From the IMG/VR virus record IMGVR_UViG_2734482780_000007: 26,669 nucleotides of DNA; one strand, 5' to 3'. The notes beneath the pieces are model-generated. The model ran no database searches and was not told where the DNA came from. It saw only the letters and a list, made by a program, of their open reading frames with translations. This document shows, piece after piece, positions 689 through 26,669 of the stretch (position 1 is the first letter of the stretch; every line of letters begins with the position of its first letter). Position numbers and translations under genes: made by a program. The DNA is from a virus. Its lineage: Duplodnaviria; Heunggongvirae; Uroviricota; Caudoviricetes.

Positions 689-1264
689 CTACGGCAGTGC
701 TGGCCATTCAATATCCTGTGCAGTTGACGTATCAACACGGTTCAGCAATACCCGATACTTTTTCCATGCTTCCAGCAACGAGATTTCTTCCTCCGTTGCA
801 ATTTCCAGATCTGCAGCATCCTGAAGCGGCGCAATATGCTCACTGGCTACCTGCATCAGGCTGTTTTTTGTTTCTTCCGCCTCCCGGATCCGGAACAGTT
901 TTTCTGCTTCCGTATCCTTCACCCAGGCTGTGCCGTTCCACTTCTGATATTCCCCTCCCGGCGATAACCAGGTAACATTTTCCGGTAACGGACCGAGTTC
1001 AGAAATAAATAACGCGTCGCCGGAAGCCACGTCATAAACCGTTTTACCCCGATGATCTTCAACGAGATGCCACGATGCCTCATCACTGTTGAAAACAGCC
1101 ACGAAGCCTGCCGGAATATCTGGCGGTGCAATATCGATACTGTTTGCTGGCAGACCTGTATGAGGCGGAATATATGCGTCACCTTCACCAATAAATTCAT
1201 TAGTTCCGGCCAGCAGATTATAAATTTTTATGGTCCGTGGTTGTTCACTCATTCTGAATGCCAT
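689..1264 (-). CDS. tfaQ: Tail fibre assembly protein (lambda Tfa-like), 191 aa
   Basis: Near-identical to lambda Tfa ([26 protein letters not shown]...); start ATG overlaps the stf stop (TAATG). Confidence 0.93.
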
Positions 1265-4017
1265 TATGCAAGCCTCACAATATAGTTAAATGCGATGTTT
1301 TTGACGGTGTTTTCCGCGTTACCAGCAGCGTTAACGGTGATGGTATGTCCATGTGAACCAATCGCAACGGAGTGCGTATGAGCACCAATACCGACAGTAT
1401 GTGCGTGTGCACCTGCGCTTGCAGCAGTACCCGATACAGAGTGCGTATGAGCGCCTGCAGAAGAAGTGTTAACACTGTATTTAGAATAATCAGGTGATCC
1501 ACTTCCCGGAGCACCACTGGAACCACCTGAAACAAATGTCATCGAATGGGTATGTGCACCGGCTGAAGCAGCCGTACCGCTAACACTATGGGTATGCGCA
1601 CCAGTGTTATTCGTGGATTTAGTGCCGTAATCAAACGACGATGTGGTTTTCGTCCCCAAATCCGTACTGGATACGCTGGCGCTGTGGGTGTGTGATTTAA
1701 TGCCGTCCTGTTCCTGAGACAATACGGCTCGATCACTGGCGGGCTTGCCCTTAATCGTCCAGCCACGCATATCAGGGATCACGCCTGACGGATAAGCGGC
1801 TGCAAGTTTCGGGTAAGCAGATTTGTCAAAAGTCTGCCCCTGCATCAGGGCATAACCAGACGGAACGGTATCTGATGGCCACGGGATTGGTGCACCGACT
1901 GGATAAAACTCTGCAGGAGGATGAGCCGAGGTGTAAAGCTGCGCCCACGGCGACCAGTTTGCGTCGGTCGTATCCCGTCGTGAACGAATAAATGCCGGAG
2001 CATGAGCACCGCTTGTACCACTCCAGCCGATGAGTAACTCACCTTCGCCAACGGCTGTCATCCCTTTCAGGTGAATGATATTTCCATACGCTGTTGGATA
2101 TCCGTTGTTATACACCTCGTATAACTCAAGACCTGTTGCCCCCTGCGTATTGTCTGTCAGCGCGGTTACCCGACCTTTTGAAGACAGATTAACTGATGAT
2201 ACTGCTGTTCCACCTGACGGTAACGCCCCGATCTCTGATGCCGTTGGCTTATTTCTGGAGTTATAGTCCCTTCGCCAGCCAGGTGAATAATCTGTTCCGT
2301 GATTAATATAGGTAAACTGGGCGTTAGTTGTTCCACCACCAGTGGAGGTGGTCGGTGTGGTAATGCGGATCGTCATCGCTGACTTTATCCCCATTACTTC
2401 AATGACAGCTCCGGCGAGATGAATATTACCGCAGCCAGTATCAGTAATGATTTTATTATTGCCATAAGACCAGGAACCCTTGCACATCCAGTATGGATGG
2501 TTAAATGCTCCCTGAGAATCCAGCCACTCGATAAACTGTGCAGTCGTCCAGTTTCCTGTTGTTGTGCTTACTGACCCACCGAAGGCACGGCAGGCACCAA
2601 TATTTTTCGTAAAGGTGTCTTTGCCAGGGATATCCGCACCGTTCTGATCTTTCTGCAGACGTTTCTCAGCATTGTCATTGGCTGCTTTTACTGCCTTTGG
2701 CGTTGCCGCCAGCGTTTCAGACGTGCTGTTGGTCGCGCTGCTTAGCTGGATTATCCCTTTCTGTGCTGTCGTTGCATCCTGTGCGGTGTATTTCCCGTTA
2801 GCCAGGTCATACGCGGCCTTAACGGCTTTTGGCGTTGCCGCCAGTGACTCGGAAGTGCTGTTGGTCGCACTGCTGAGCTGTACTATCCCCTTTTTCGTCG
2901 TGCTCGCATCCTCAAGCGCCACGGCGGATGCAATATCCTCTGCCCGTTTTGCCGCTGTCTCAGCGCGCGTTGCTGCAGATTCCGCCGTACTTTTGCTCTG
3001 AGCTGCTGCCGTCGCACTGCCAGCTGCCTCTGTCGCCTTCGTGGATGCCGTCGTGGCGCTACCCTTCGCTGCTGACGCCTGTCTGGTCGCCTCATCTTTT
3101 GAAGCAGACGCAGATGATGCCGATGACGACGCCGAACTGGCTGACGATGCGGCAGCCGTTTTTGAGGATTCTGCGCTGGTTTCCGACGCTTTCGCGTTCG
3201 TTTCGGATGTCTTCGCTGCGGAAGCAGACCTCGCTGCTGCGCTGGCTTGTTCAGTGGCTTCGCCAGCCTTCGTTGTGGCTGTTGAAGCAGACGATGCGGC
3301 GCTTTCTGCCGATTTTCCGGCGGCGGTGGCACTGGCTGAGGCCTGCCCGGCACTTGTTGACGCTGCACTGGCAGACGACGCAGCCGCTGTTTTTGAGCCT
3401 GCCGCAGCCGAGGCGCTCTGTCCCGCTGCCGTTTCAGAAGACCTGGCGTTCGTCTCTGACGTTTTTGCCGCCTTCGCGGAATTTCCTGCCGCTGTTGCCG
3501 AGGAAGCTGCGCTACTGGCGCTCGAGGATGCGTTCGTTTCTGATGATTTTGCCGCCTCTTTTGAAGCCGCCGCATCCCGGGCTGAGGTGGCAGCTTCTGA
3601 CGCTTTCGTAGTCGCGGTGGATGCAGAAGTGGCTGCTGATTGTTGTGACGCTGCAGCATTCGTTTCTGACGTTTTCGCGGCACTGGCACTGGTAGCTGCC
3701 GCGCTTTTTGAGGACTCTGCAGCGGCAGCACTTTTTGATGCTTCAGTGGCCTTTGTTGATGCCGTTCCTGCGCTGGAAGTCGCTGACTGAGCCGACGACG
3801 CGGCCTGTCCGGCTGACGTGCTGGCTGCGCGTGCTGAGCCTGCAGCATCAGTCGCATGGGTTTCGGCATACCATCTTATAACGGCGGCAGAGTCATAAAG
3901 CACCTCATTACCCTTGCCACCGCCTCGCAGAACGGGCATTCCCTGTTCCTGCCAGTTCTGAATGGTACGGATACTCGCACCGAAAATGTCAGCCAGCTGC
4001 TTTTTGTTGACTTCCAT
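1264..4017 (-). CDS. stfQ: Side tail fibre protein fused in frame to the N-terminal ~52 aa of terminase small subunit Nu1 (917 aa chimeric ORF)
   Basis: First ~52 residues match lambda Nu1 N-terminus ([46 protein letters not shown]...), then continues as lambda Stf-like sequence ([18 protein letters not shown]...), the [31 protein letters not shown] repeat and a His-rich C-terminus. Confidence 0.9.
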
Positions 4018-6318: not shown

Positions 6319-6681
6319 AATTATTACCTTTTGAAGAAATTAGCCCTTGGGCAGAATGGTCCGAAAAAAAATATCAGAGAGAAAAACCAACAAGGAAATC
6401 TCAAGAGGTACAAATAATAAAATTATAACAATGACTGCTTCAGATAAATTTGTAACAAACCAGAACACCATTAACGCATGATTAACCACCCATAGCAAGG
6501 ATTACTTTTGTAAAGAAAAACACAGCAATGAAAGAATAGCTTTATTTATTAATAATAACGTGTCATTCTGATTAAGACCTTTTATCTTACCCTTAAGATT
6601 TCAGGAATTTTGGCTCATGGAAGAGTCCTTTTTATTTAAATTTTACATTCCGCGATGTAAATGTTCCGATTTAATATTACC

Positions 6682-7705
<1,024 letters not shown>

Positions 7706-14825: not shown

Positions 14826-15815
14826 TCAATCTTTTTTATCGGGATCAGGCTTCTTTTTAGGTAACTTCGGGGGCTTAACTTGCTGATGACTTTGCGTTCG
14901 GCGCGTAAGCCAGGGATGGTCAGCTTTAGGTTTAACATAGTATTTTGAGCGTAAATCAATACGGGCATTATCCACTCGTTCATGGACACTCTTTTCATCA
15001 TCCAGTGGTATAGGCTCCGGGCCATCAACATACTTTTCCCAGCCCAGCGCTTTCCCGTCATACAGAACGTTAATTTCACCGTCAAAGTTCTCGCATACAG
15101 TAACAACCGAATGCCTAAGTCGATATCCCCGGCCCTCACTGCGTACCTGAAACGCACTGCTTGTGTACTGGAAAGTGAGATTTTTAGACAGAACGCGCTT
15201 CGCCTGTAGGCTGAAGATATAACCCAGTTCCTCTTCAGAATGGTGCACATCAAGATGAGCATTATCAGTAGTACGAGGCGACGTAGCGAACCGGTTGTTA
15301 TAGGCTTCAATAAAGGTCGGCAACCATGCATTTGCTGTTTCAATATCACTGATATTCTGAAGCCGCATTTCTTTGACCAGCCTGTCCTGTAGTGTCTGAT
15401 TGGCGCGCTCTACCCGCCCTTTTGCCTGCGGGCTGTTGGCATGGATTGGCTCGATGCCCAGTGTCTTTATCGCACGAGTGAACTGGGTCAGCTCACCTTC
15501 CCGCTCTGGGTTATTTACCCTGAATATACTGTGTCTATCAGAGTAGAGAGCGAGCGGTACGCCATGATCATTAAGGTAACCCCGGAGGGTTTCCATGTAA
15601 GCCCGGGTTGTTTCAGCAGGCACAAAACGCAACGCCATCAACGCACTGGTGGCATCATCAATGAAAACGATCAGTGTACATCTGGGGCCTCGATTTTCAA
15701 ACCAGTCATGAGGTGAGCCATCAATCTGGATCAGTTCACCGTAAGATGGTCGTCGCATGCGACGTTGATATATACGGGCAATTTTACGACGGCGTTCACG
15801 CCATACCCCCCTCTT
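14826..15815 (-). CDS. Transposase catalytic part (rve/DDE integrase core), frame open from 15815; first ATG at 15758
   Basis: IQIDGSPHDWFE ... IVFIDDATSALMA ... HANSPQAKGRVERANQTLQDRL; joins the N-terminal ORF frame if one G of the G6 run (15806-15811) is removed. Confidence 0.75.
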   Translation of the reverse strand, partial: KRGVWRERRRKIARIYQRRMRRPSYGELIQIDGSPHDWFENRGPRCTLIVFIDDATSALMALRFVPAETTRAYMETLRGYLNDHGVPLALYSDRHSIFRVNNPEREGELTQFTRAIKTLGIEPIHANSPQAKGRVERANQTLQDRLVKEMRLQNISDIETANAWLPTFIEAYNNRFATSPRTTDNAHLDVHHSEEELGYIFSLQAKRVLSKNLTFQYTSSAFQVRSEGRGYRLRHSVVTVCENFDGEINVLYDGKALGWEKYVDGPEPIPLDDEKSVHERVDNARIDLRSKYYVKPKADHPWLTRRTQSHQQVKPPKLPKKKPDPDKKD

Positions 15816-16167
15816 CTATCATCCACTTTCTGAGAGTTTCAACGGATAAAGATAAACCGTGTATCTCGCGCAATTTTTCGCACGCAAACGTAGGTCCAAA
15901 ATCAGCGTAACGGCCTTTGAGGAGTGAAATTACTGTTGCTCTGAATTCAGTAGAAAAGGAATTATTAGGACGCTTTCCACGTCGGTGGGAAACCAGACCA
16001 GAAGGCCCTTCATTTCTATACCGTTGCACCAGACGTTTAACCTGCCGAATAGAAATGCCAATGCGTGCCGCAGCTTGTTCCTGAGTAATATGTCGATTAA
16101 TTGACTCCTGAATAATCTGAAGTCGGTGGAGTTCCTTATGACTCATCGTAACAGTTTCTTTGGTCAT
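15796..16167 (-). CDS. Transposase N-terminal part (HTH domain), 123 aa, ends at a stop just after a G6 run
   Basis: MTKETVTMSHKELHRLQIIQESINRHITQEQAAARIGISIRQVKRLVQRY... Confidence 0.75.
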   Translation of the reverse strand: MTKETVTMSHKELHRLQIIQESINRHITQEQAAARIGISIRQVKRLVQRYRNEGPSGLVSHRRGKRPNNSFSTEFRATVISLLKGRYADFGPTFACEKLREIHGLSLSVETLRKWMIEEGGMA

Positions 16168-16501
16168 GAAAAATCCCCCAGAGAATTGTCTGGGGACATT
16201 TTAGAATGGTTCAAAGGGGACATTACAGCTTGGTGTTAACAATAGCCTGCTTCTCCTTGCCTTTCGGCACGTAAGAGGCTAACCTACATGTGTCTGGCAT
16301 GAAATTGGCCTCAGATTAATGTTAAGCGTCTTGCAGGACGCGTAATGTTAACTGGGGCTTTTCTCTACCTGCCGTTGGTGTTCGTGCCCGAGGCAGATAG
16401 CCTCAAGCACCCGCAGTCATTCTACTTAACTAAGATTTCCCCGCAAACCGTTTTTGTCCAGCACAGTAAATATCCAACTAAACCAATGGAGTTCGCTGTA
16501 T

Positions 16502-16681
16502 TTACCGCCAGTATTCAATGCACATGACCGCCATGAACACCCCTAAAAAAAGGGCATTTATATATCCAAATATTAATATCAAAACATCAACTTTTTCCAT
16601 ATACCTTGCTGTGAAGATGATGGGCATACATGATGCGAACAACCAGAACGCAACAAACAAAAACTGCAATGCGTTTTTCAT
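16502..16681 (-). CDS. Small predicted two-TM membrane protein, 59 aa
   Basis: MKNALQFLFVAFWLFASCMPIIFTARYMEKVDVLILIFGYINALFLGVFMAVMCIEYWR; perfect AGGAGG SD 5 nt upstream of the ATG at 16681. Confidence 0.5.
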   Translation of the reverse strand: MKNALQFLFVAFWLFASCMPIIFTARYMEKVDVLILIFGYINALFLGVFMAVMCIEYWR

Positions 16682-16935
16682 TATTCCTCCTACAATCAAT
16701 GTGCAATTACATTTAAACACACCTCAATTTGGCCGGACATATAAATATCTAAACCAGAAAAAATCACTTACATAGCGTTACAAACTCTTTAGTCTAAAGG
16801 TTCATCGTAAAACATTCCCCATACTTATCAGTCCGTTCCGCGCCAGGTAGCTCATTGCCTTATCTGGCAACCTGTAATCAGGTTTCCGCTTTTTCAGTTG
16901 GCTGGTCGTTTAACCGACATAGTTAACCCATTAAT

Positions 16936-17223
16936 CTAGTTGCCGGATGTTGGTGGATTTTCGCGTTTTAGTTGTTCATAAAAGTGCACAGCTTTAACCA
17001 ATTCTTCTGATGTAACCGGGACTGGTGAGGCAGTGAATAAGGCCTGAATTTGATAGTTCGGCCTGTCGTTACAATCCTCTTTTTTCGGTACATATTTCCA
17101 GTCACCAGACCACTACTTCCCCTGAAAGTCCGTAACGCCTTTTTTCACGTAGCGATATCGCCATGTCACTGGTTTTGCTTGCCCCGCCGTTTCATGCCCT
17201 TCCTGATAATTAATCTCGCTCAT
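16936..17223 (-). pseudogene. 95-codon ORF interrupted by a single in-frame TAG (complement of 17113-17115)
   Basis: MSEINYQEGHETAGQAKPVTWRYRYVKKGVTDFQGK*WSGDWKYVPKKEDCNDRPNYQIQALFTASPVPVTSEELVKAVHFYEQLKRENPPTSGN, same frame either side of the amber codon. Confidence 0.3.
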
Positions 17224-17833
17224 TCATCGCCCCACTCATCACAATATGCTTCGACCGGAGTTTTTCCCGCTTCATAGTCATCACGCTAGGATTCGACATC
17301 AGCAGCACTTCCACCGCGTAACTCACCATAGTCCATTAATAGTTCATCCCGCTCTTCAAAACTGATGTTATATTTAGCTGAACAAAAATCAGCCACTTTG
17401 TTCTTCCTCATCGTCTTTTATTTCGTGGTATGAGTAATTGCAGTAGTTAAAGAAAATTTCTTATGCTCCGTCATGAATTTCATCAGGTGTTGCGTCATCG
17501 TCCACTTCGAATACATCCTCAAAATCTCCACCAGCTATTCCCGTTTCAATAATAATTTTGAACTTTCGCATTTCACTACCGCCCTTTCGGGCGGCCTCCT
17601 GATGTTCTGAGGGTGCAGAAATCCATCCGGTTAAGGATTAAGTTTTATTTACAGAACTGAATTTAATTATTCAGATATACGTATCTGTAACCTTACGAAT
17701 CTACTCACTGGATGCCTCTTTCATAAAAATAATCCAGTGGGTTTTATCGTTTTTTCCCTGTTCGTTGACAGATAACAGGCTTTCTATCTGTCAGTGCCAG
17801 AATCTGGCTTACCGGTATTTGCGTTTCATTCCA

Positions 17834-18190
17834 TTAAAAAATCAGAACGCCGTGCGGCCTCAACACCCGAAAAGCTTCTTTAAATCTCTGTCGCAAATCA
17901 TCACGCCAGGCATCTTTATTCAGCCGTCCATATTTCTTTCCCATCCAGGCGTTATCACCAACACGCTCAAGATGCGGAGGGTCTAATACAACCATCGAAA
18001 AAGATGCGTCTGCAAATGATAATGCACGAAAATCTGCGATAATGTCAGGGCTGATAATCAAGCGTCTCCCATTGCGTAATGTGTATCCTTCTTTTCTGAT
18101 ATCGCTGAATATCGCCCGTTTGTCAGACTTATCGAACCAGAACATGCGGCTGCCACAGCACATATCAAGAATGGTTGCCGGTGCACTCAC
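17834..18190 (-). pseudogene. C-terminally truncated SAM-dependent DNA amino-methyltransferase, 118 aa remnant
   Basis: Motif I ILDMCCGS and motif IV VVLDPPH present, ORF stops soon after; start ATG overlaps the upstream ORF stop (ATGA). Confidence 0.55.
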
Positions 18191-21862: not shown

Positions 21863-21920
21863 TTTCTGGTGACGTTTGGCGGTATCAGTTTTACTCCGTG
21901 ACTGCTCTGCCGCCCTTTTT
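21863..21920 (+). ncRNA. dicF: DicF small RNA (Hfq-dependent antisense regulator of ftsZ and other targets), processed from the ydfABC-dicF-dicB transcript
   Basis: TTTCTGGTGACGTTTGGCGGTATCAGTTTTACTCCGTGACTGCTCTGCCGCCCTTTTT matches DicF as recalled, ending in a hairpin plus T-run; exact mature ends approximate. Confidence 0.85.
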
Positions 21921-22089: not shown

Positions 22090-22278
22090 ATGAAAACGTT
22101 ATTACCAAACGTTAATACGTCTGAAGGTTGTTTTGAAATTGGTGTCACTATCAGTAACCCAGTATTTACTGAAGATGCCATTAACAAGAGAAAACAAGAA
22201 CGGGAGCTATTAAATAAAATATGCATTGTTTCAATGCTGGCTCGTTTACGTCTGATGCCAAAAGGATGTGCACAATGA
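22090..22278 (+). CDS. dicB: Cell-division inhibitor DicB, 62 aa
   Basis: MKTLLPNVNTSEGCFEIGVTISNPVFTEDAINKRKQERELLNKICIVSMLARLRLMPKGCAQ; GAGGA SD. Confidence 0.92.
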   Translation: MKTLLPNVNTSEGCFEIGVTISNPVFTEDAINKRKQERELLNKICIVSMLARLRLMPKGCAQ

Positions 22279-22466
22279 ATTCAGCATTTGTGCTTGTTCT
22301 GACAGTTTTTCTTGTTTCCGGAGAGCCAGTTGATATTGCAGTCAGTGTTCACAGGACAATGCAGGAGTGTATGACTGCAGCAACCGAACAGAAAATTCCC
22401 GGTAACTGTTACCCGGTCGATAAAGTTATTCACCAGGATAATATCGAAATCCCGGCAGGTCTTTAA
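22275..22466 (+). CDS. ydfD: Small membrane protein YdfD, 63 aa
   Basis: MNSAFVLVLTVFLVSGEPVDIAVSVHRTMQECMTAATEQKIPGNCYPVDKVIHQDNIEIPAGL; start overlaps the dicB stop (ATGA). Confidence 0.85.
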   Translation: MNSAFVLVLTVFLVSGEPVDIAVSVHRTMQECMTAATEQKIPGNCYPVDKVIHQDNIEIPAGL

Positions 22467-22558
22467 AACAGTTCCGTAATAAATATCCGGTTTCATTCTT
22501 ATATGCCAGCAATGGCAGGGATTTGTTCATCCTTAAATCTGTCATGAGGTTAAAACAA

Positions 22559-25030
22559 ATGAGTAAAGTCTTTATTTGCGCCGCTATTCCTGACGAACTG
22601 GCAACAAGGGAAGAAGGCGCTGTGGCTGTAGCCACAGCCATTGAAGCTGGCGACGAACGCCGTGCTCGAGCAAAATTTCACTGGCAATTCCTGGAACATT
22701 ATCCGGCTGCTCAGGACTGCGCTTATAAATTTATTGTCTGCGAGGATAAACCTGGCATACCCCGCCCTGCCCTCGATTCATGGGATGCTGAATATATGCA
22801 GGAAAACCGCTGGGATGAGGAGTCTGCTTCTTTTGTCCCGGTTGAGACTGAATCCGATCCGATGAACGTCACTTTTGACAAGCTGGCCCCTGAAGTACAG
22901 AACGCTGTCATGGTTAAGTTCGACACATGTGAAAACATCACCGTTGATATGGTTATTAGCGCACAGGAATTGTTGCAGGAAGACATGGCAACATTCGACG
23001 GACATATCGTTGAAGCGTTGATGAAAATGCCAGAAGTTAACGCCATGTATCCGGAGCTTAAGTTGCACGCCATTGGGTGGGTTAAGCATAAATGTATTCC
23101 TGGTGCTAAATGGCCCGAAATTCAGGCAGAGATGCGCATCTGGAAAAAACGTCGCGAAGGTGAACGCAAGGAAACCGGAAAATACACGTCTGTTGTTGAT
23201 CTCGCCCGCGCCAGAGCCAATCAACAGTACACTGAAAATTCAACAGGAAAAATCAGCCCGGTCATTGCTGCCATTCATCGCGAATACAAGCAGACATGGA
23301 AAACACTGGATGACGAACTGGCCTACGCTCTCTGGCCTGGTGATGTGGATGCCGGAAACATTGACGGCAGCATCCATCGCCGGGCAAAAAATGAAGTTAT
23401 CGACAACGACCGCGAAGACTGGAAGCGTATCTCGGCATCAATGCGCAAACAGCCTGATGCCCTTCGCTACGACCGCCAAACTATTTTTGGCCTTGTCCGT
23501 GAGCGTCCGATCGACATTCACAAAGATCCCGTAGCACTGAACAAATATATCTGCGAATACCTGACGACAAAGGGCGTGTTTGAGAATGAAGAAACAGACC
23601 TGGGCACTGTTGATGTTCTCCAGTCATCAGAAACACAAACTGATGCAGTGGAAACTGAGGTATCTGATATCCCAAAAAATGAAACCGCGCCGGAAGCTGA
23701 ACCATCTGTAGAGCGTGAGGGGCCGTTCTATTTCCTCTTCGCAGATAAGGACGGAGAAAAATACGGTCGCGCAAACAAACTTTCTGGTCTGGATAAGGCA
23801 CTGGCTGCTGGCGCCACTGAAATCACAAAAGAAGAATATTTTGCCCGAAAAAATGGCACATACACGGGCTTACCGCAAAATGTAGATACCGCTGAAGATT
23901 CAGAACAACCAGGGCCGATAAAAGTTACCGCTGACGAAGTAAACAAAATTATGCAGGCAGCCAATATCATCCAGCCTGACGCCGATAAGTTGCTTGCTGC
24001 ATCACGTGGTGAATTTGTTGAAGGGATTAGTGACCCGAATGATCCGAAATGGGTTAAGGGGATCCAGACCCGCGATTCTGTGAACCAGAACCAGCATGAA
24101 TCGGAACGGAACTACCAAAAAGCGGAACAAAACAGCCCAAATGCGTTACAAAACGAGCCAGAAACGAAACAGCCTGAATCAGTGGCGCAACAGGAAGTGG
24201 AAAAAGTCTGCACCGCCTGCGGTCAGACCGGCGGCGGCAACTGCCCTGATTGTGGCGCGGTAATGGGCGACGCAACATACCAGGAAACATTCGATGAAGA
24301 GTATCAGGTTGAAGTTCAGGAAGATGATCCGGAGGAAATGGAAGGCGCTGAACATCCACACAAGGAGAACACTGGCGGCAATCAGCATCACGATAGCGAT
24401 AATGAAACTGGCGAGACGGCAGATCACTCAATTAAGGTGAACGGTCATCAAGAAATCACATCCACCAGCAGGACGTGTGACCATCTAATGATCGACCTTG
24501 AAACCATGGGAAAAAATCCTGATGCCCCGATCATCTCAATAGGTGCAATATTTTTCGATCCGCAAACCGGAGATATGGGACCGGAATTTAGTAAGACTAT
24601 CGATCTGGAAACTGCTGGCGGAGTCATTGATCGGGACACCATTAAATGGTGGCTTAAGCAATCACGCGAAGCGCAATCTGCCATTATGACCGATGAAATC
24701 CCGTTAGATGATGCACTGTTACAATTGCGGGAATTTATCGACGAAAACTCCGGTGAATTTTTTGTTCAGGTCTGGGGAAATGGAGCCAACTTCGACAACA
24801 CGATTTTGCGCCGTTCATACGAACGGCAGGGGATCCCCTGCCCGTGGCGTTACTACAACGATCGCGATGTACGCACAATCGTTGAGCTGGGGAAAGCCAT
24901 AGACTTCGATGCCAGAACGGCTATTCCATTCGAAGGTGAGCGCCATAATGCACTTGATGACGCCCGTTACCAGGCAAAATACGTTTCAGTTATCTGGCAA
25001 AAACTGATCCCGAGTCAGGCTGATTCTTAA
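22559..25030 (+). CDS. ydfE: Full-length YdfE-like protein, 823 aa: N-terminal domain, acidic linker, C4 zinc ribbon, C-terminal DEDDh (DnaQ-like) 3'-5' exonuclease domain
   Basis: GAGG SD before MSKVFICAAIPDELATREEG...; CTAC-x7-CPDC at about 24207-24258; exonuclease motifs MIDLETMG, WGNGANFD, HNALDDA in the last ~180 aa. Confidence 0.85.
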   Translation: MSKVFICAAIPDELATREEGAVAVATAIEAGDERRARAKFHWQFLEHYPAAQDCAYKFIVCEDKPGIPRPALDSWDAEYMQENRWDEESASFVPVETESDPMNVTFDKLAPEVQNAVMVKFDTCENITVDMVISAQELLQEDMATFDGHIVEALMKMPEVNAMYPELKLHAIGWVKHKCIPGAKWPEIQAEMRIWKKRREGERKETGKYTSVVDLARARANQQYTENSTGKISPVIAAIHREYKQTWKTLDDELAYALWPGDVDAGNIDGSIHRRAKNEVIDNDREDWKRISASMRKQPDALRYDRQTIFGLVRERPIDIHKDPVALNKYICEYLTTKGVFENEETDLGTVDVLQSSETQTDAVETEVSDIPKNETAPEAEPSVEREGPFYFLFADKDGEKYGRANKLSGLDKALAAGATEITKEEYFARKNGTYTGLPQNVDTAEDSEQPGPIKVTADEVNKIMQAANIIQPDADKLLAASRGEFVEGISDPNDPKWVKGIQTRDSVNQNQHESERNYQKAEQNSPNALQNEPETKQPESVAQQEVEKVCTACGQTGGGNCPDCGAVMGDATYQETFDEEYQVEVQEDDPEEMEGAEHPHKENTGGNQHHDSDNETGETADHSIKVNGHQEITSTSRTCDHLMIDLETMGKNPDAPIISIGAIFFDPQTGDMGPEFSKTIDLETAGGVIDRDTIKWWLKQSREAQSAIMTDEIPLDDALLQLREFIDENSGEFFVQVWGNGANFDNTILRRSYERQGIPCPWRYYNDRDVRTIVELGKAIDFDARTAIPFEGERHNALDDARYQAKYVSVIWQKLIPSQADS

Positions 25031-25102
25031 TGTTCAACTGTCGCCGGTTGTGACTGGTATTCTGCAACCGGCGCTCGTCTGATGTAAGAGATAAAGAAAT
25101 CG

Positions 25103-25354
25103 ATGAGCGAAGTAATCATGATTGTCTCTCCCGGCAAATGGGTATCCGAAGAGCAGTTAATTGCGCTGAAAGGAATAAAAAAAGGTACGTTAAAAAAGGC
25201 CCGGGAAAAATCGTTTATGGAAGGAAGGGAATATAAGCATGTCGCTCATGACGGTATGCCATGGGATAACAGTCCATGCTTTTACAACCTGGAAGAAATT
25301 GATCGCTGGATTGAGCGCCAGGCATCAGCAAGACCAAGACGTCATCTTACTTGA
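25103..25354 (+). CDS. Putative excisionase / small DNA-binding protein upstream of int, 83 aa
   Basis: Small basic ORF directly upstream of and co-oriented with the integrase; start (25103 or 25118) uncertain. Confidence 0.55.
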   Translation: MSEVIMIVSPGKWVSEEQLIALKGIKKGTLKKAREKSFMEGREYKHVAHDGMPWDNSPCFYNLEEIDRWIERQASARPRRHLT

Positions 25355-25388
25355 CTAAAAGCCACACTAACTAATGAGAGAAGTTGAA

Positions 25389-26669
25389 ATGAAATATCCG
25401 ACAGGCGTGGAAAACCATGGAGGGAAATTACGTATCTGGTTTGTTTATAAAGGCGTAAGAGTCAGGGAAAACCTGGGGGTTCCTGACACAGCAAAAAACA
25501 GGCGCGTTGCAGGTGAGCTACGCGCCTCTGTTTGTTACGCAATAAAAACTGGTGTTTTCGACTATGCAAAACAGTTTCCCTCCTCACGCAATCTGGAAAA
25601 ATTTGGTGAGACTCGACAAGATTTAACCATAAAAGAACTGGCTGAAAAATTTCTGGCACTGAAAGAAACTGAAGTCGCAAAAACATCACTCAACACATAC
25701 CGTGCCGTCATCAAAAATATCCTGAGCATAATCGGTGAAAAAAATCTTGCCTCATCGATTAATAAAGAAAAATTACTGGAGGTTCGTAAAGAGCTACTGA
25801 CTGGATACCAGATCCCCAAAAGTAACTATATTGTTACACAACCAGGGAGATCGGCTGTAACTGTAAATAATTACATGACAAATCTTAACGCCGTGTTCCA
25901 GTTTGGTGTTGATAACGGTTACCTGGCAGATAACCCGTTTAAGGGGATCTCGCCATTAAAGGAATCAAGAACCATTCCGGATCCTCTTTCGCGGGAGGAA
26001 TTCATCCGTCTTATCGATGCGTGCAGAAATCAGCAAGCCAAAAATTTATGGTGTGTTTCTGTTTATACTGGCGTTCGCCCTGGTGAGCTGTGTGCACTTG
26101 GATGGGAGGACATAGATCTGAAAAATGGAACAATGATGATCAGGAGAAATTTAGCAAAAGACCGTTTCACGGTACCAAAAACACAGGCGGGAACCAATCG
26201 GGTCATTCATCTTATTAAGCCAGCAATCGACGCTCTCCGGAGTCAGATGACATTAACGAGACTGAGCAAAGAGCATATCATTGATGTTCACCTCAGAGAG
26301 TATGGCAGAACAGAAAAACATAAATGCACCTTTGTTTTTCAACCTGAAGTGTCAGCGAGAGTAAAAAATTATGGTGACCATTTTACCGTTGACTCAATAA
26401 GGCAGATGTGGGACGCAGCGATAAAACGTGCCGGACTCCGCCATCGAAAATCATATCAGTCGAGACATACTTATGCCTGCTGGTCGCTGACAGCTGGTGC
26501 TAATCCGGCATTTATAGCAAACCAGATGGGCCATGCAGATGCGCAAATGGTATTTCAGGTATACGGAAAATGGATGTCTGAAAACAATAATGCACAGGTA
26601 GCTTTGTTAAATACACAGTTAAGCGAGTTTGCCCCAACCATGCCCCATAACGAAGCAATGAAAAATTAA
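25389..26669 (+). CDS. Tyrosine recombinase (phage integrase), 426 aa, intact to its stop at the last base of the window
   Basis: C-terminal catalytic residues consistent with the R..H-x-x-R..Y family (SRHTYACWSL ... QMGHADAQMVFQVYGKW); N-terminal arm-binding-like region MKYPTGVENHGGKLRIWFVYKGVRVRE. Confidence 0.9.
   Translation: MKYPTGVENHGGKLRIWFVYKGVRVRENLGVPDTAKNRRVAGELRASVCYAIKTGVFDYAKQFPSSRNLEKFGETRQDLTIKELAEKFLALKETEVAKTSLNTYRAVIKNILSIIGEKNLASSINKEKLLEVRKELLTGYQIPKSNYIVTQPGRSAVTVNNYMTNLNAVFQFGVDNGYLADNPFKGISPLKESRTIPDPLSREEFIRLIDACRNQQAKNLWCVSVYTGVRPGELCALGWEDIDLKNGTMMIRRNLAKDRFTVPKTQAGTNRVIHLIKPAIDALRSQMTLTRLSKEHIIDVHLREYGRTEKHKCTFVFQPEVSARVKNYGDHFTVDSIRQMWDAAIKRAGLRHRKSYQSRHTYACWSLTAGANPAFIANQMGHADAQMVFQVYGKWMSENNNAQVALLNTQLSEFAPTMPHNEAMKN

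Follow-up and report, generated by a model that had tools for sequence, protein, structure and literature searches.

A full-length YdfE protein of a Qin-type prophage joins a predicted DEDDh exonuclease to a RecE-like scaffold

The ydfE gene and its C-terminal nuclease domain

The IMG/VR virus record IMGVR_UViG_2734482780_000007 is a stretch of 26,669 nucleotides (nt), here called the window, and it carries a full-length copy of ydfE in the slot between dicB/ydfD and xis-int. In the list of open reading frames (ORFs), a frame on the plus strand, on which all window features lie unless stated otherwise, runs uninterrupted over 22523..25030. Its ATG at 22559, 9 nt 3' of a GAGG, opens a gene of 823 codons (22559..25030, stop codon included). 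RefSeq holds a 100% identical gene with the same ATG start (WP_016242145.1, 'exonuclease', from E. coli A38), and the match to PHROG 2082 spans the full-length product end to end. A preliminary description of this DNA had proposed one continuous ORF of 823 amino acids (aa), and the single frame and the identical RefSeq gene bear this out.

The product is laid out as a chain of domains, short modules and linkers. Two head domains come first, a small alpha/beta domain (aa 1-100; 22559..22858) recognised in an AlphaFold2 (AF2) model and a helical domain (aa 101-210; 22859..23188) with predicted local distance difference test (pLDDT) scores above 90. They are followed by a middle helical domain (aa 245-340; 23291..23578; pLDDT about 90), a disordered, fast-evolving linker (aa 345-385; 23591..23713; pLDDT below 50) and a small conserved 'GPFY...GRANK...EITKEEY' module (aa 386-440; 23714..23878) that is visible in the alignment with relatives. 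A mosaic module, which blastn finds in common with recE at the DNA level (aa 475-622; 23983..24425), holds the RGEFVEGISDPNDPKWV motif (24005-24055), a C4 zinc ribbon and most of an acidic linker. The ribbon, C551-x2-C554-x7-C562-x2-C565 (CTAC-x7-CPDC, aa 551-565; 24209..24253), is kept in RecE and relatives, and the linker (aa 576-640; 24284..24478) has a net charge of -16. The chain ends in a predicted DEDDh 3'-5' exonuclease domain (aa 641-823; 24479..25027), in which the translated gene shows Exo I (MIDLETMG, aa 644-651; 24488-24511), Exo II (WGNGANFD, aa 739-746; 24773-24796) and Exo III (HNALDDA, aa 796-802; 24944-24964). The ribbon, the acidic linker and the three DnaQ-like motifs within the C-terminal ~180 aa had all been pointed out before, and each lies where it had been placed.

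To describe selection on these parts, we compared the gene with two diverged alleles (83% and 89% amino-acid identity) in an ungapped alignment and calculated the ratio of non-synonymous to synonymous substitution rates (dN/dS). The overall ratio is 0.22-0.27. The folded parts, from the three N-terminal domains through the GPFY module and the motif region to the zinc ribbon and the nuclease, have values of 0.04-0.27, including 0.09-0.16 in head domain 2, 0.10-0.13 in the middle domain, 0.04-0.08 in the GPFY module and 0.04-0.19 over aa 546-575 around the ribbon. The ratio rises to 0.5-0.7 in the acidic linker (0.46-0.72 over aa 576-640) and to about 1 in the linkers aa 346-385 and 441-470 (0.8-1.5 over aa 345-385), linker values being rough because the alignment is ungapped. 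It is firmly supported that the folded parts are under purifying selection and that the intact multi-domain protein is under selection.

The C-terminal domain matches PF16473, the family of Rv2179c-like 3'-5' exoribonucleases, with 226.4 bits against a cutoff of 27 (E 2.5e-67; aa 642-813, profile positions 2-177 of 177), and phmmer matches it to the T4 DexA structure 8KEL_A (E 1.5e-6, aa 643-776). The sole solved structures matched by sequence were 8KEL and 8KEN, which are T4 DexA and its S87A/D90A mutant (PMC12153337). A MAFFT alignment set the domain beside a T4-like DexA, an EcD-like protein and stand-alone homologues from enterobacteria. D646, E648, D746, H796 and D801 align to DexA D7, E9, D119, H186 and D191, and these catalytic columns are invariant, save for one relative with N at the Exo II Asp. 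The Exo motifs are likewise kept in nearly all of 104 full-length cluster representatives. This agreement of motifs and profile is far above chance. The profile search and the DexA match support the DEDDh exonuclease fold that had been suggested for this end of the protein, and we are confident in predicting that the C-terminal 183 aa are a DEDDh 3'-5' exonuclease of the Rv2179c/T4 DexA/EcD family with its catalytic residues complete. The whole protein is very probably an active 3'-5' exonuclease joined to a RecE-type scaffold. Going by what is known of the family, its substrate is probably DNA rather than RNA, and the same knowledge suggests that it would act with 3'-5' polarity and by two-metal catalysis.

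DexA, a 3'-5' DNA exonuclease encoded by a phage, takes part in DNA-end processing, double-strand-break processing, the scavenging of host DNA and intron homing (PMC12153337). It belongs to the same Pfam family as the window domain, has the same catalytic residues and is about 26-28% identical to it, but it is a stand-alone protein of 227 aa with extra loops, whereas the window domain is the C terminus of an 823-aa scaffold. Rv2179c of M. tuberculosis, likened here through the family, also has the DEDDh motifs and PF16473 but is chromosomal, stand-alone and described as an exoribonuclease. Much closer are stand-alone proteins of 180-185 aa from other E. coli and E. albertii (P0159, P0168, P0171, P0184, P0186, P0188 and P0194), which begin at the equivalent of M644 (MIDLETMG...) and are 70-90% identical to the window nuclease domain; these are either real short genes or calls on truncated copies. 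In P0159, N replaces the Exo II aspartate. Another relative, P0241 (527 aa), has an internal deletion that joins aa 1-384 to '...FFDPQTG' with loss of Exo I, and because this motif is removed its nuclease is predicted to be dead.

The closest experimentally tested relative is EcD, an E. coli DexA homologue reported to cut only DNA that contains 5-hydroxymethylcytosine (5hmC) and to protect against T4 (PMC12153337). We rebuilt an EcD-like sequence by following the published forward primer to exact matches in IMG/VR contigs, which yielded a protein of 189 aa with the A78 named in that study (PMC12153337). It is 38% identical to the window nuclease domain over 183 aa (E 1e-37). EcD, or HREX (HAK9828821.1), is of the same Pfam family and likewise prophage-borne, but it stands alone, at 189 aa, and was reported to be a defence nuclease specific for 5hmC, whereas the window protein has 823 aa, a RecE-type scaffold and a place in a lambdoid early-left operon. 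Nor are the same specificity residues evident in the alignment. Of the two DexA residues reported for 5hmC recognition, W152 aligns to Y766, which keeps an aromatic, and D169 aligns to A780; the tetramer residue D90 falls on D718 in the MAFFT alignment and on A719 in the phmmer alignment, a disagreement of one register, with the loops poorly aligned. Because these equivalents differ or shift between alignments, the specificity of EcD is not transferable to the window protein. We dropped the attempt to read 5hmC specificity or oligomeric state from DexA/EcD residues, given the register conflict at D90 and the unreliable loop at D169.

A modular scaffold shared with RecE

The middle of the window protein resembles RecE over a long stretch. 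Against K-12 RecE, BLASTP aligns aa 262-625 with RecE 278-591 (E 9e-62), at 39% identity overall and near-identity from aa ~472, and the aligned stretch includes the middle domain (RecE aa ~278-351), the RGEFVxGISDPNDPKW motif, the C4 zinc ribbon and the acidic linker. The NCBIfam RecE equivalog model NF007259 matches aa 246-625 along model positions 271-602 with 284 bits, far below its cutoff of 1269. At the DNA level, blastn aligns gene nt 1425-1867 (aa 475-622) with K-12 recE nt 1365-1765 (RecE aa 455-588) at 78% identity, and the same block is 86% identical to other recE alleles. The RecE homology stops at RecE aa 588-591, which is the start of the RecE nuclease domain (RecE 588-866); a 2023 review places that domain at residues 564-866, ascribes no known function to the N-terminal region, and states that full-length RecE improves linear-linear recombination (PMC11611040). 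Neither PF12684 (DUF3799, the RecE-type PD-(D/E)XK nuclease) nor PF06630 (Exonuc_VIII, the RecE N-terminal head) had a Pfam match in the window protein.

RecE itself (exonuclease VIII of the Rac prophage in K-12) is, like the window protein, a large multi-part protein in the slot between the kil/dicB genes and xis-int. It ends, however, in a PD-(D/E)XK 5'-3' double-stranded DNA (dsDNA) exonuclease and is followed by RecT, whereas the window protein ends in a nuclease of DEDDh 3'-5' type and has no annealase. The heads differ too, being of the Exonuc_VIII family (PF06630) in RecE and of the YdfE_N/YdfE_C families in the window protein. By these comparisons the likeness is true homology, and the window protein is best described as a RecE paralogue with a swapped nuclease. 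The preliminary description had seen only a parallel in layout, with a different nuclease fold; the tie is stronger than that, given a homologous middle domain, ribbon and linker.

A natural chimera marks the place of exchange. In P0248 (locus L035, 5001-7418), blastn matches nt 1-1820 to K-12 recE nt 1-1772 at 92% identity, and nt 1387-2418 to the final 1026 nt of the window gene at 94%. The two matches overlap inside the central block, and this block acts as a crossover site for nuclease swapping between prophages. A different rearrangement is found in P0323 (703 aa), a deletion fusion in which RecE aa 1-~527, ending within the zinc ribbon, are joined in-frame to a RecT core (Pfam RecT E 1.2e-42), with removal of the RecE nuclease.

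A full scan of aa 1-640 against 1.84 billion representative proteins returned 248 clusters, and since just these were matched the scaffold family is narrow. In a homologue search with aa 1-470 only copies 81-99% identical were recovered, nearly all of them at least 90% identical. Heads in the family are of two kinds, YdfE type or RecE type (PF06630), and the middle domain is common to both, while 'GPFY...GRANK', the RGEFVxGISDPxDPKW motif and the zinc ribbon are optional modules. Four types of C terminus occur: the DEDDh domain, the PD-(D/E)XK RecE nuclease (PF12684), a Rad52-like domain and a small helical domain. Each head type occurs with all four, as does head domain 2, and the GPFY module is also present in relatives with an annealase, a RecE-type nuclease or the small C terminus. 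Three proteins (P0248, P0358 and P0242) combine a PF06630 head with a DEDDh domain. The third type gave no match in sequence and profile searches of Pfam and the Protein Data Bank and was identified as Rad52-like by structure comparison alone. The fourth, seen in P0246, P0253, P0269, P0381 and P0386, is short and helical and bears the motif 'QQLTIAALQGLCANPA'; Pfam scans of P0246 and P0386 matched no family to it, and PHROG 26058 lists its function as not assigned.

The N-terminal region had been described as having no assignable fold, and this still stands. An AF2 model of aa 1-385, built on 31 homologues, has a mean pLDDT of 82.7 and three domains (aa 1-100, alpha/beta; aa 105-205, helical; aa 245-340, helical), and structure comparison of these head and middle domains gave no informative match. 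Precomputed matches to YdfE_N (PF27430) and YdfE_C (PF27432) exist on close homologues 90-99% identical; judging from which relatives carry which family, YdfE_N probably corresponds to head domain 1 and YdfE_C to head domain 2.

Operon, neighbouring genes and distribution

The genes around ydfE are those of a lambdoid early-left operon. Upstream lie the small RNA DicF (21864-21915; Rfam), dicB (22090-22278; Pfam DicB, RefSeq) and ydfD (22275-22466; Pfam DUF1482, RefSeq), and downstream lie the excisionase gene xis (25103-25354; ORF list, RefSeq) and the integrase gene int, which starts at 25374 or 25389 and runs past the window end at 26669 (ORF list, RefSeq). These Pfam, Rfam and RefSeq assignments agree with the slot between dicB/ydfD and xis-int given in the preliminary description. 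The DEDDh form lies directly 5' of xis/int or of int alone in seven distinct contexts (the window and six others), at prophage sites that include rspB, ompW and potC, and one of these contexts is in another genus. Between the ydfE stop codon and xis lies an inverted repeat (25041-25070) whose 8-bp arms, GCCGGTTG...CAACCGGC, enclose a 14-nt loop; it has no T run and is thus no typical intrinsic terminator.

Transcription of dicBF in K-12 begins upstream of ydfA, spans six protein-coding genes and is driven by a promoter that DicA represses; it is derepressed by Rem, heat or urea and is spontaneously on in about 1% of cells (PMC10448788). A promoter scan of the window showed no sigma-70-like plus-strand site just 5' of the gene. 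The full-length gene is probably expressed like dicBF, as an early-left gene and not as a moron expressed in the lysogen.

The slot had also been noted to hold no annealase partner. Searches by tblastn with K-12 RecT, a second RecT, lambda Exo, Bet and Gam, P22 Erf, Abc1 and Abc2, and the Rad52-like domain gave no match, either in the window or across 88 related loci, in keeping with that claim. Among relatives, a YdfE head joined to a PD-(D/E)XK nuclease is followed by a RecT gene (Pfam E 2e-36), and a scaffold joined to a Rad52-like domain is flanked by a Gam homologue and a gp157-family gene. Because relatives there adjoin RecT, Gam and gp157 genes, we regard the slot as a recombination slot. 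The DEDDh form is without an adjacent annealase and is therefore not a two-component recombinase of Red/RecET type; the 5'-3' dsDNA exonuclease of such systems is likewise replaced by a nuclease of a 3'-5' family, with polarity taken from the family. Lambda Red (Exo-Bet-Gam) and other two-component recombinases have the same slot and the same early-left, repressor-controlled expression, but the window and related loci have no similarity to Exo, Bet or Gam, no annealase and a nuclease of predicted opposite polarity.

The gene is widespread. Of 5426 complete E. coli genomes, 3537 (65%) contain at least 80% of its length, with a median of 2 and a maximum of 10 matching places per genome. Near-identical copies are carried by the viable phages Tritos, HannyBb, PhiR42_1 and mEp460.

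The K-12 copy is truncated, in line with the preliminary description, where its ydfE was said to be shorter and disrupted. In alignment, the Qin region of K-12 is 99.2-99.3% identical to the window as far as 23325 (codon 255), after which an IS2 (IS2E) fragment begins, and homology returns at window position 25510. K-12 thus keeps codons 1-255 only; the segment 23326..25509, and with it codons 256-823, the whole of xis and the 5' end of int, is absent (a 2.2-kb deletion) with the IS2 fragment in its place. A 767-nt ydfE stump lies beside IS2 in many K-12-like genomes. The statement that K-12 has no DexA homologue (PMC12153337) agrees with this truncation.

Possible roles of the protein

The preliminary description had named recombination, degradation of competing phage DNA and action against host defences as possible roles, without choosing among them. 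Taken together, these observations are consistent with a model, to which we would give a probability of about 0.55 as a whole, in which YdfE is a beads-on-a-string protein encoded by a functional early gene of Qin-type and related lambdoid phages. From N to C terminus it would comprise the two-domain YdfE head, the middle domain, short modules, C4 ribbon and acidic linker shared with RecE, and the DEDDh exonuclease, the 5'-3' PD-(D/E)XK nuclease having probably been exchanged for a 3'-5' nuclease by recombination inside the shared central module. The operon would be transcribed from the DicA-repressed dicB promoter, as shown for K-12, and derepressed by induction, spontaneously, or by Rem, heat or urea. 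Going by the fusion patterns, the scaffold may bring the enzyme to where it acts, which is probably at DNA ends or at a host partner in DNA metabolism. As a member of its family, the DEDDh domain would remove nucleotides singly from DNA 3'-OH ends by two-metal catalysis, with the metals on D646, E648, D746 and D801 and with H796 as general base. Our best guess at its role is that it may trim or degrade 3' DNA ends during phage development, as T4 DexA does. A role in recombination or DNA-end processing, rather than in exclusion, is a tentative choice that we hold at somewhat less than even odds.

The mixing of heads and C termini allows a broader reading, more speculative still. The N-terminal region of RecE and its YdfE-type counterpart may form a targeting scaffold, independent of the effector, with which lambdoid phages would bring exchangeable DNA-end enzymes to a single place, be it DNA ends or a host partner; we consider this possible, with the odds leaning against it. 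The DEDDh form would then be a self-sufficient, annealase-free version with a distinct job, such as destroying 3' tails or competitor DNA.

Several points weigh against the DNA-end-processing model. In the literature we found no functional work on full-length YdfE and no biochemical or genetic data. The founding member of PF16473, Rv2179c, is described as an exoribonuclease, so that an RNA substrate is conceivable. A lone 3'-5' nuclease makes none of the 3' tails that recombination needs, and a recombination role is therefore not obvious, while EcD, the closest tested relative at 38% identity, is reported as a defence nuclease and not as a recombination enzyme. For aa 1-385 there is no informative structural match, which leaves targeting by the scaffold as pure inference. 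Finally, 80 of the 88 related loci are IMG/VR loci that are nearly identical, and because of this they are not independent observations.

The main rival is that the protein is an exclusion or defence nuclease of HREX type, which would degrade the DNA of superinfecting phages, especially those with modified cytosines, and so protect the lysogen or the induced cell. EcD, with its shared Pfam family, its 38% identity and its reported cutting of 5hmC-containing DNA and protection against T4 (PMC12153337), is the natural precedent, and an aromatic residue, Y766, stands where DexA has W152. DicB, the product of a neighbouring gene, is described as protecting against phages (PMC6832061), and ydfE has remained intact in a prophage whose structural genes are gone. 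However, the gene sits in a repressor-controlled early operon with no lysogenic promoter of its own, and its domain is part of an 823-aa protein rather than the ~190-aa stand-alone form that characterises HREX. Other strains do have free-standing versions of 180-190 aa. The residue reported as key to 5hmC recognition, DexA D169, aligns to A780, and D90, which bears on oligomeric state, falls on D718 or A719 depending on the alignment, so that specificity is not readable from the sequence. Exclusion would also leave the tie to the RecE scaffold and the recombination slot unexplained, and EcD itself is an early-operon gene of a P2-like prophage. We consider exclusion unlikely.

The EcD locus can be described more closely. 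The EcD-like gene lies at 6404-6970 on the minus strand of locus L028, and also in L007, L012, L022, L023 and L025, in the early (Cox-side) operon of a P2-like prophage, with the order integrase, helix-turn-helix repressor, Cox, DUF4761, EcD-like gene, Dam methyltransferase and DUF4406. From this location it follows that EcD is a phage early gene and not a chromosomal defence gene.

A second alternative makes YdfE an RNA exonuclease like Rv2179c, one that would, for example, turn over phage or host transcripts or process their 3' ends. Its Pfam family takes its name from a 3'-5' exoribonuclease, NCBI labels many copies '3'-5' exoribonuclease', and the operon yields a processed small RNA, DicF. 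Yet it is RNase III and RNase E that are credited with DicF processing (PMC10448788), the two tested phage or prophage members of the family, DexA and EcD, act on DNA (PMC12153337), and the other named enzyme partners of the scaffold, the RecE nuclease and the Rad52-like annealase, are DNA enzymes only. We regard an RNA exonuclease as improbable.

Marginally harder to uphold is the suggestion, made in the preliminary description, of an anti-defence enzyme, which would destroy a host immune nucleic acid such as retron multicopy single-stranded DNA, signalling oligonucleotides or CRISPR intermediates. Counter-defence genes are common in the early-left regions of lambdoid phages, and DEDDh domains occur in CRISPR-associated contexts, as the match to the PADLOC DEDDh model (E 1.8e-5) recalls. 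That match, however, reflects generic similarity within a shared superfamily, our searches found no specific similarity to known anti-defence proteins, and the gene context points to no particular defence system, so that the suggestion gained no direct support. That the ORF is a decaying remnant, open by chance in a dead prophage and now functionless, would fit the defective state of the element (a Nu1::tail-fibre ORF, transposase fragments and pseudogenes) and the broken K-12 copy, but we rejected it as very improbable, since it is largely refuted by the selection pattern (dN/dS 0.22-0.27 overall and below 0.2 in most folded modules) and is opposed by the motifs kept in nearly all of the 104 representatives, the near-identical copies in viable phages and the presence of at least 80% of the gene in 65% of genomes.

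The family to which the protein belongs already has database names. RefSeq labels the protein 'exonuclease' or '3'-5' exonuclease', PHROG 2082 and the YdfE_N, YdfE_C and Rv2179c-like families exist, and the stand-alone relatives T4 DexA and EcD were characterised in 2025 (PMC12153337). The view of YdfE as an uncharacterised nuclease is right as regards work on the full-length protein, but the gene is not obscure, being labelled and present in most E. coli genomes. In the searchable literature we found no report of a RecE scaffold whose nuclease was exchanged for one of opposite polarity, of a swap point that coincides with the start of the RecE nuclease domain, or of the same scaffold bearing a Rad52-like annealase.

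RecE is a workhorse of recombineering. That four or more C-terminal effectors occur on the same scaffold modules argues for a scaffold job independent of the effector, and natural chimeras are on offer for probing it. YdfE is also among the most widespread nucleases of E. coli for which activity is only predicted, being found in about two-thirds of complete genomes and often in several copies. Because K-12 has no intact copy, laboratory genetics never sampled the full-length protein. Should it exclude phages, as reported for EcD, this would bear on phage therapy and on the contamination of cultures by phage; should it process DNA ends, it could be a component of new tools.

The element that carries the window gene is a defective Qin-type prophage. 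An ORF of 917 codons on the minus strand (1264-4017) begins with the N terminus of the Nu1 small terminase (aa 1-104) and continues into tail-fibre repeats and a collar domain; the in-frame deletion behind this fusion removed the whole morphogenesis region, and the prophage is therefore defective. In the replication and regulation region, at 15096-18145 (A38 annotation, offset +2558), lie a fragment of an ISEsa1 transposase and three pseudogenes with frameshifts or stop codons, one of them for an S-adenosylmethionine-dependent methyltransferase, which are further evidence of prophage decay around the intact exonuclease-xis-int block. The composition of positions 2500-4000 is odd (GC 0.58-0.60, AT skew -0.38), probably because of the glycine-rich fibre repeats that the minus strand encodes.

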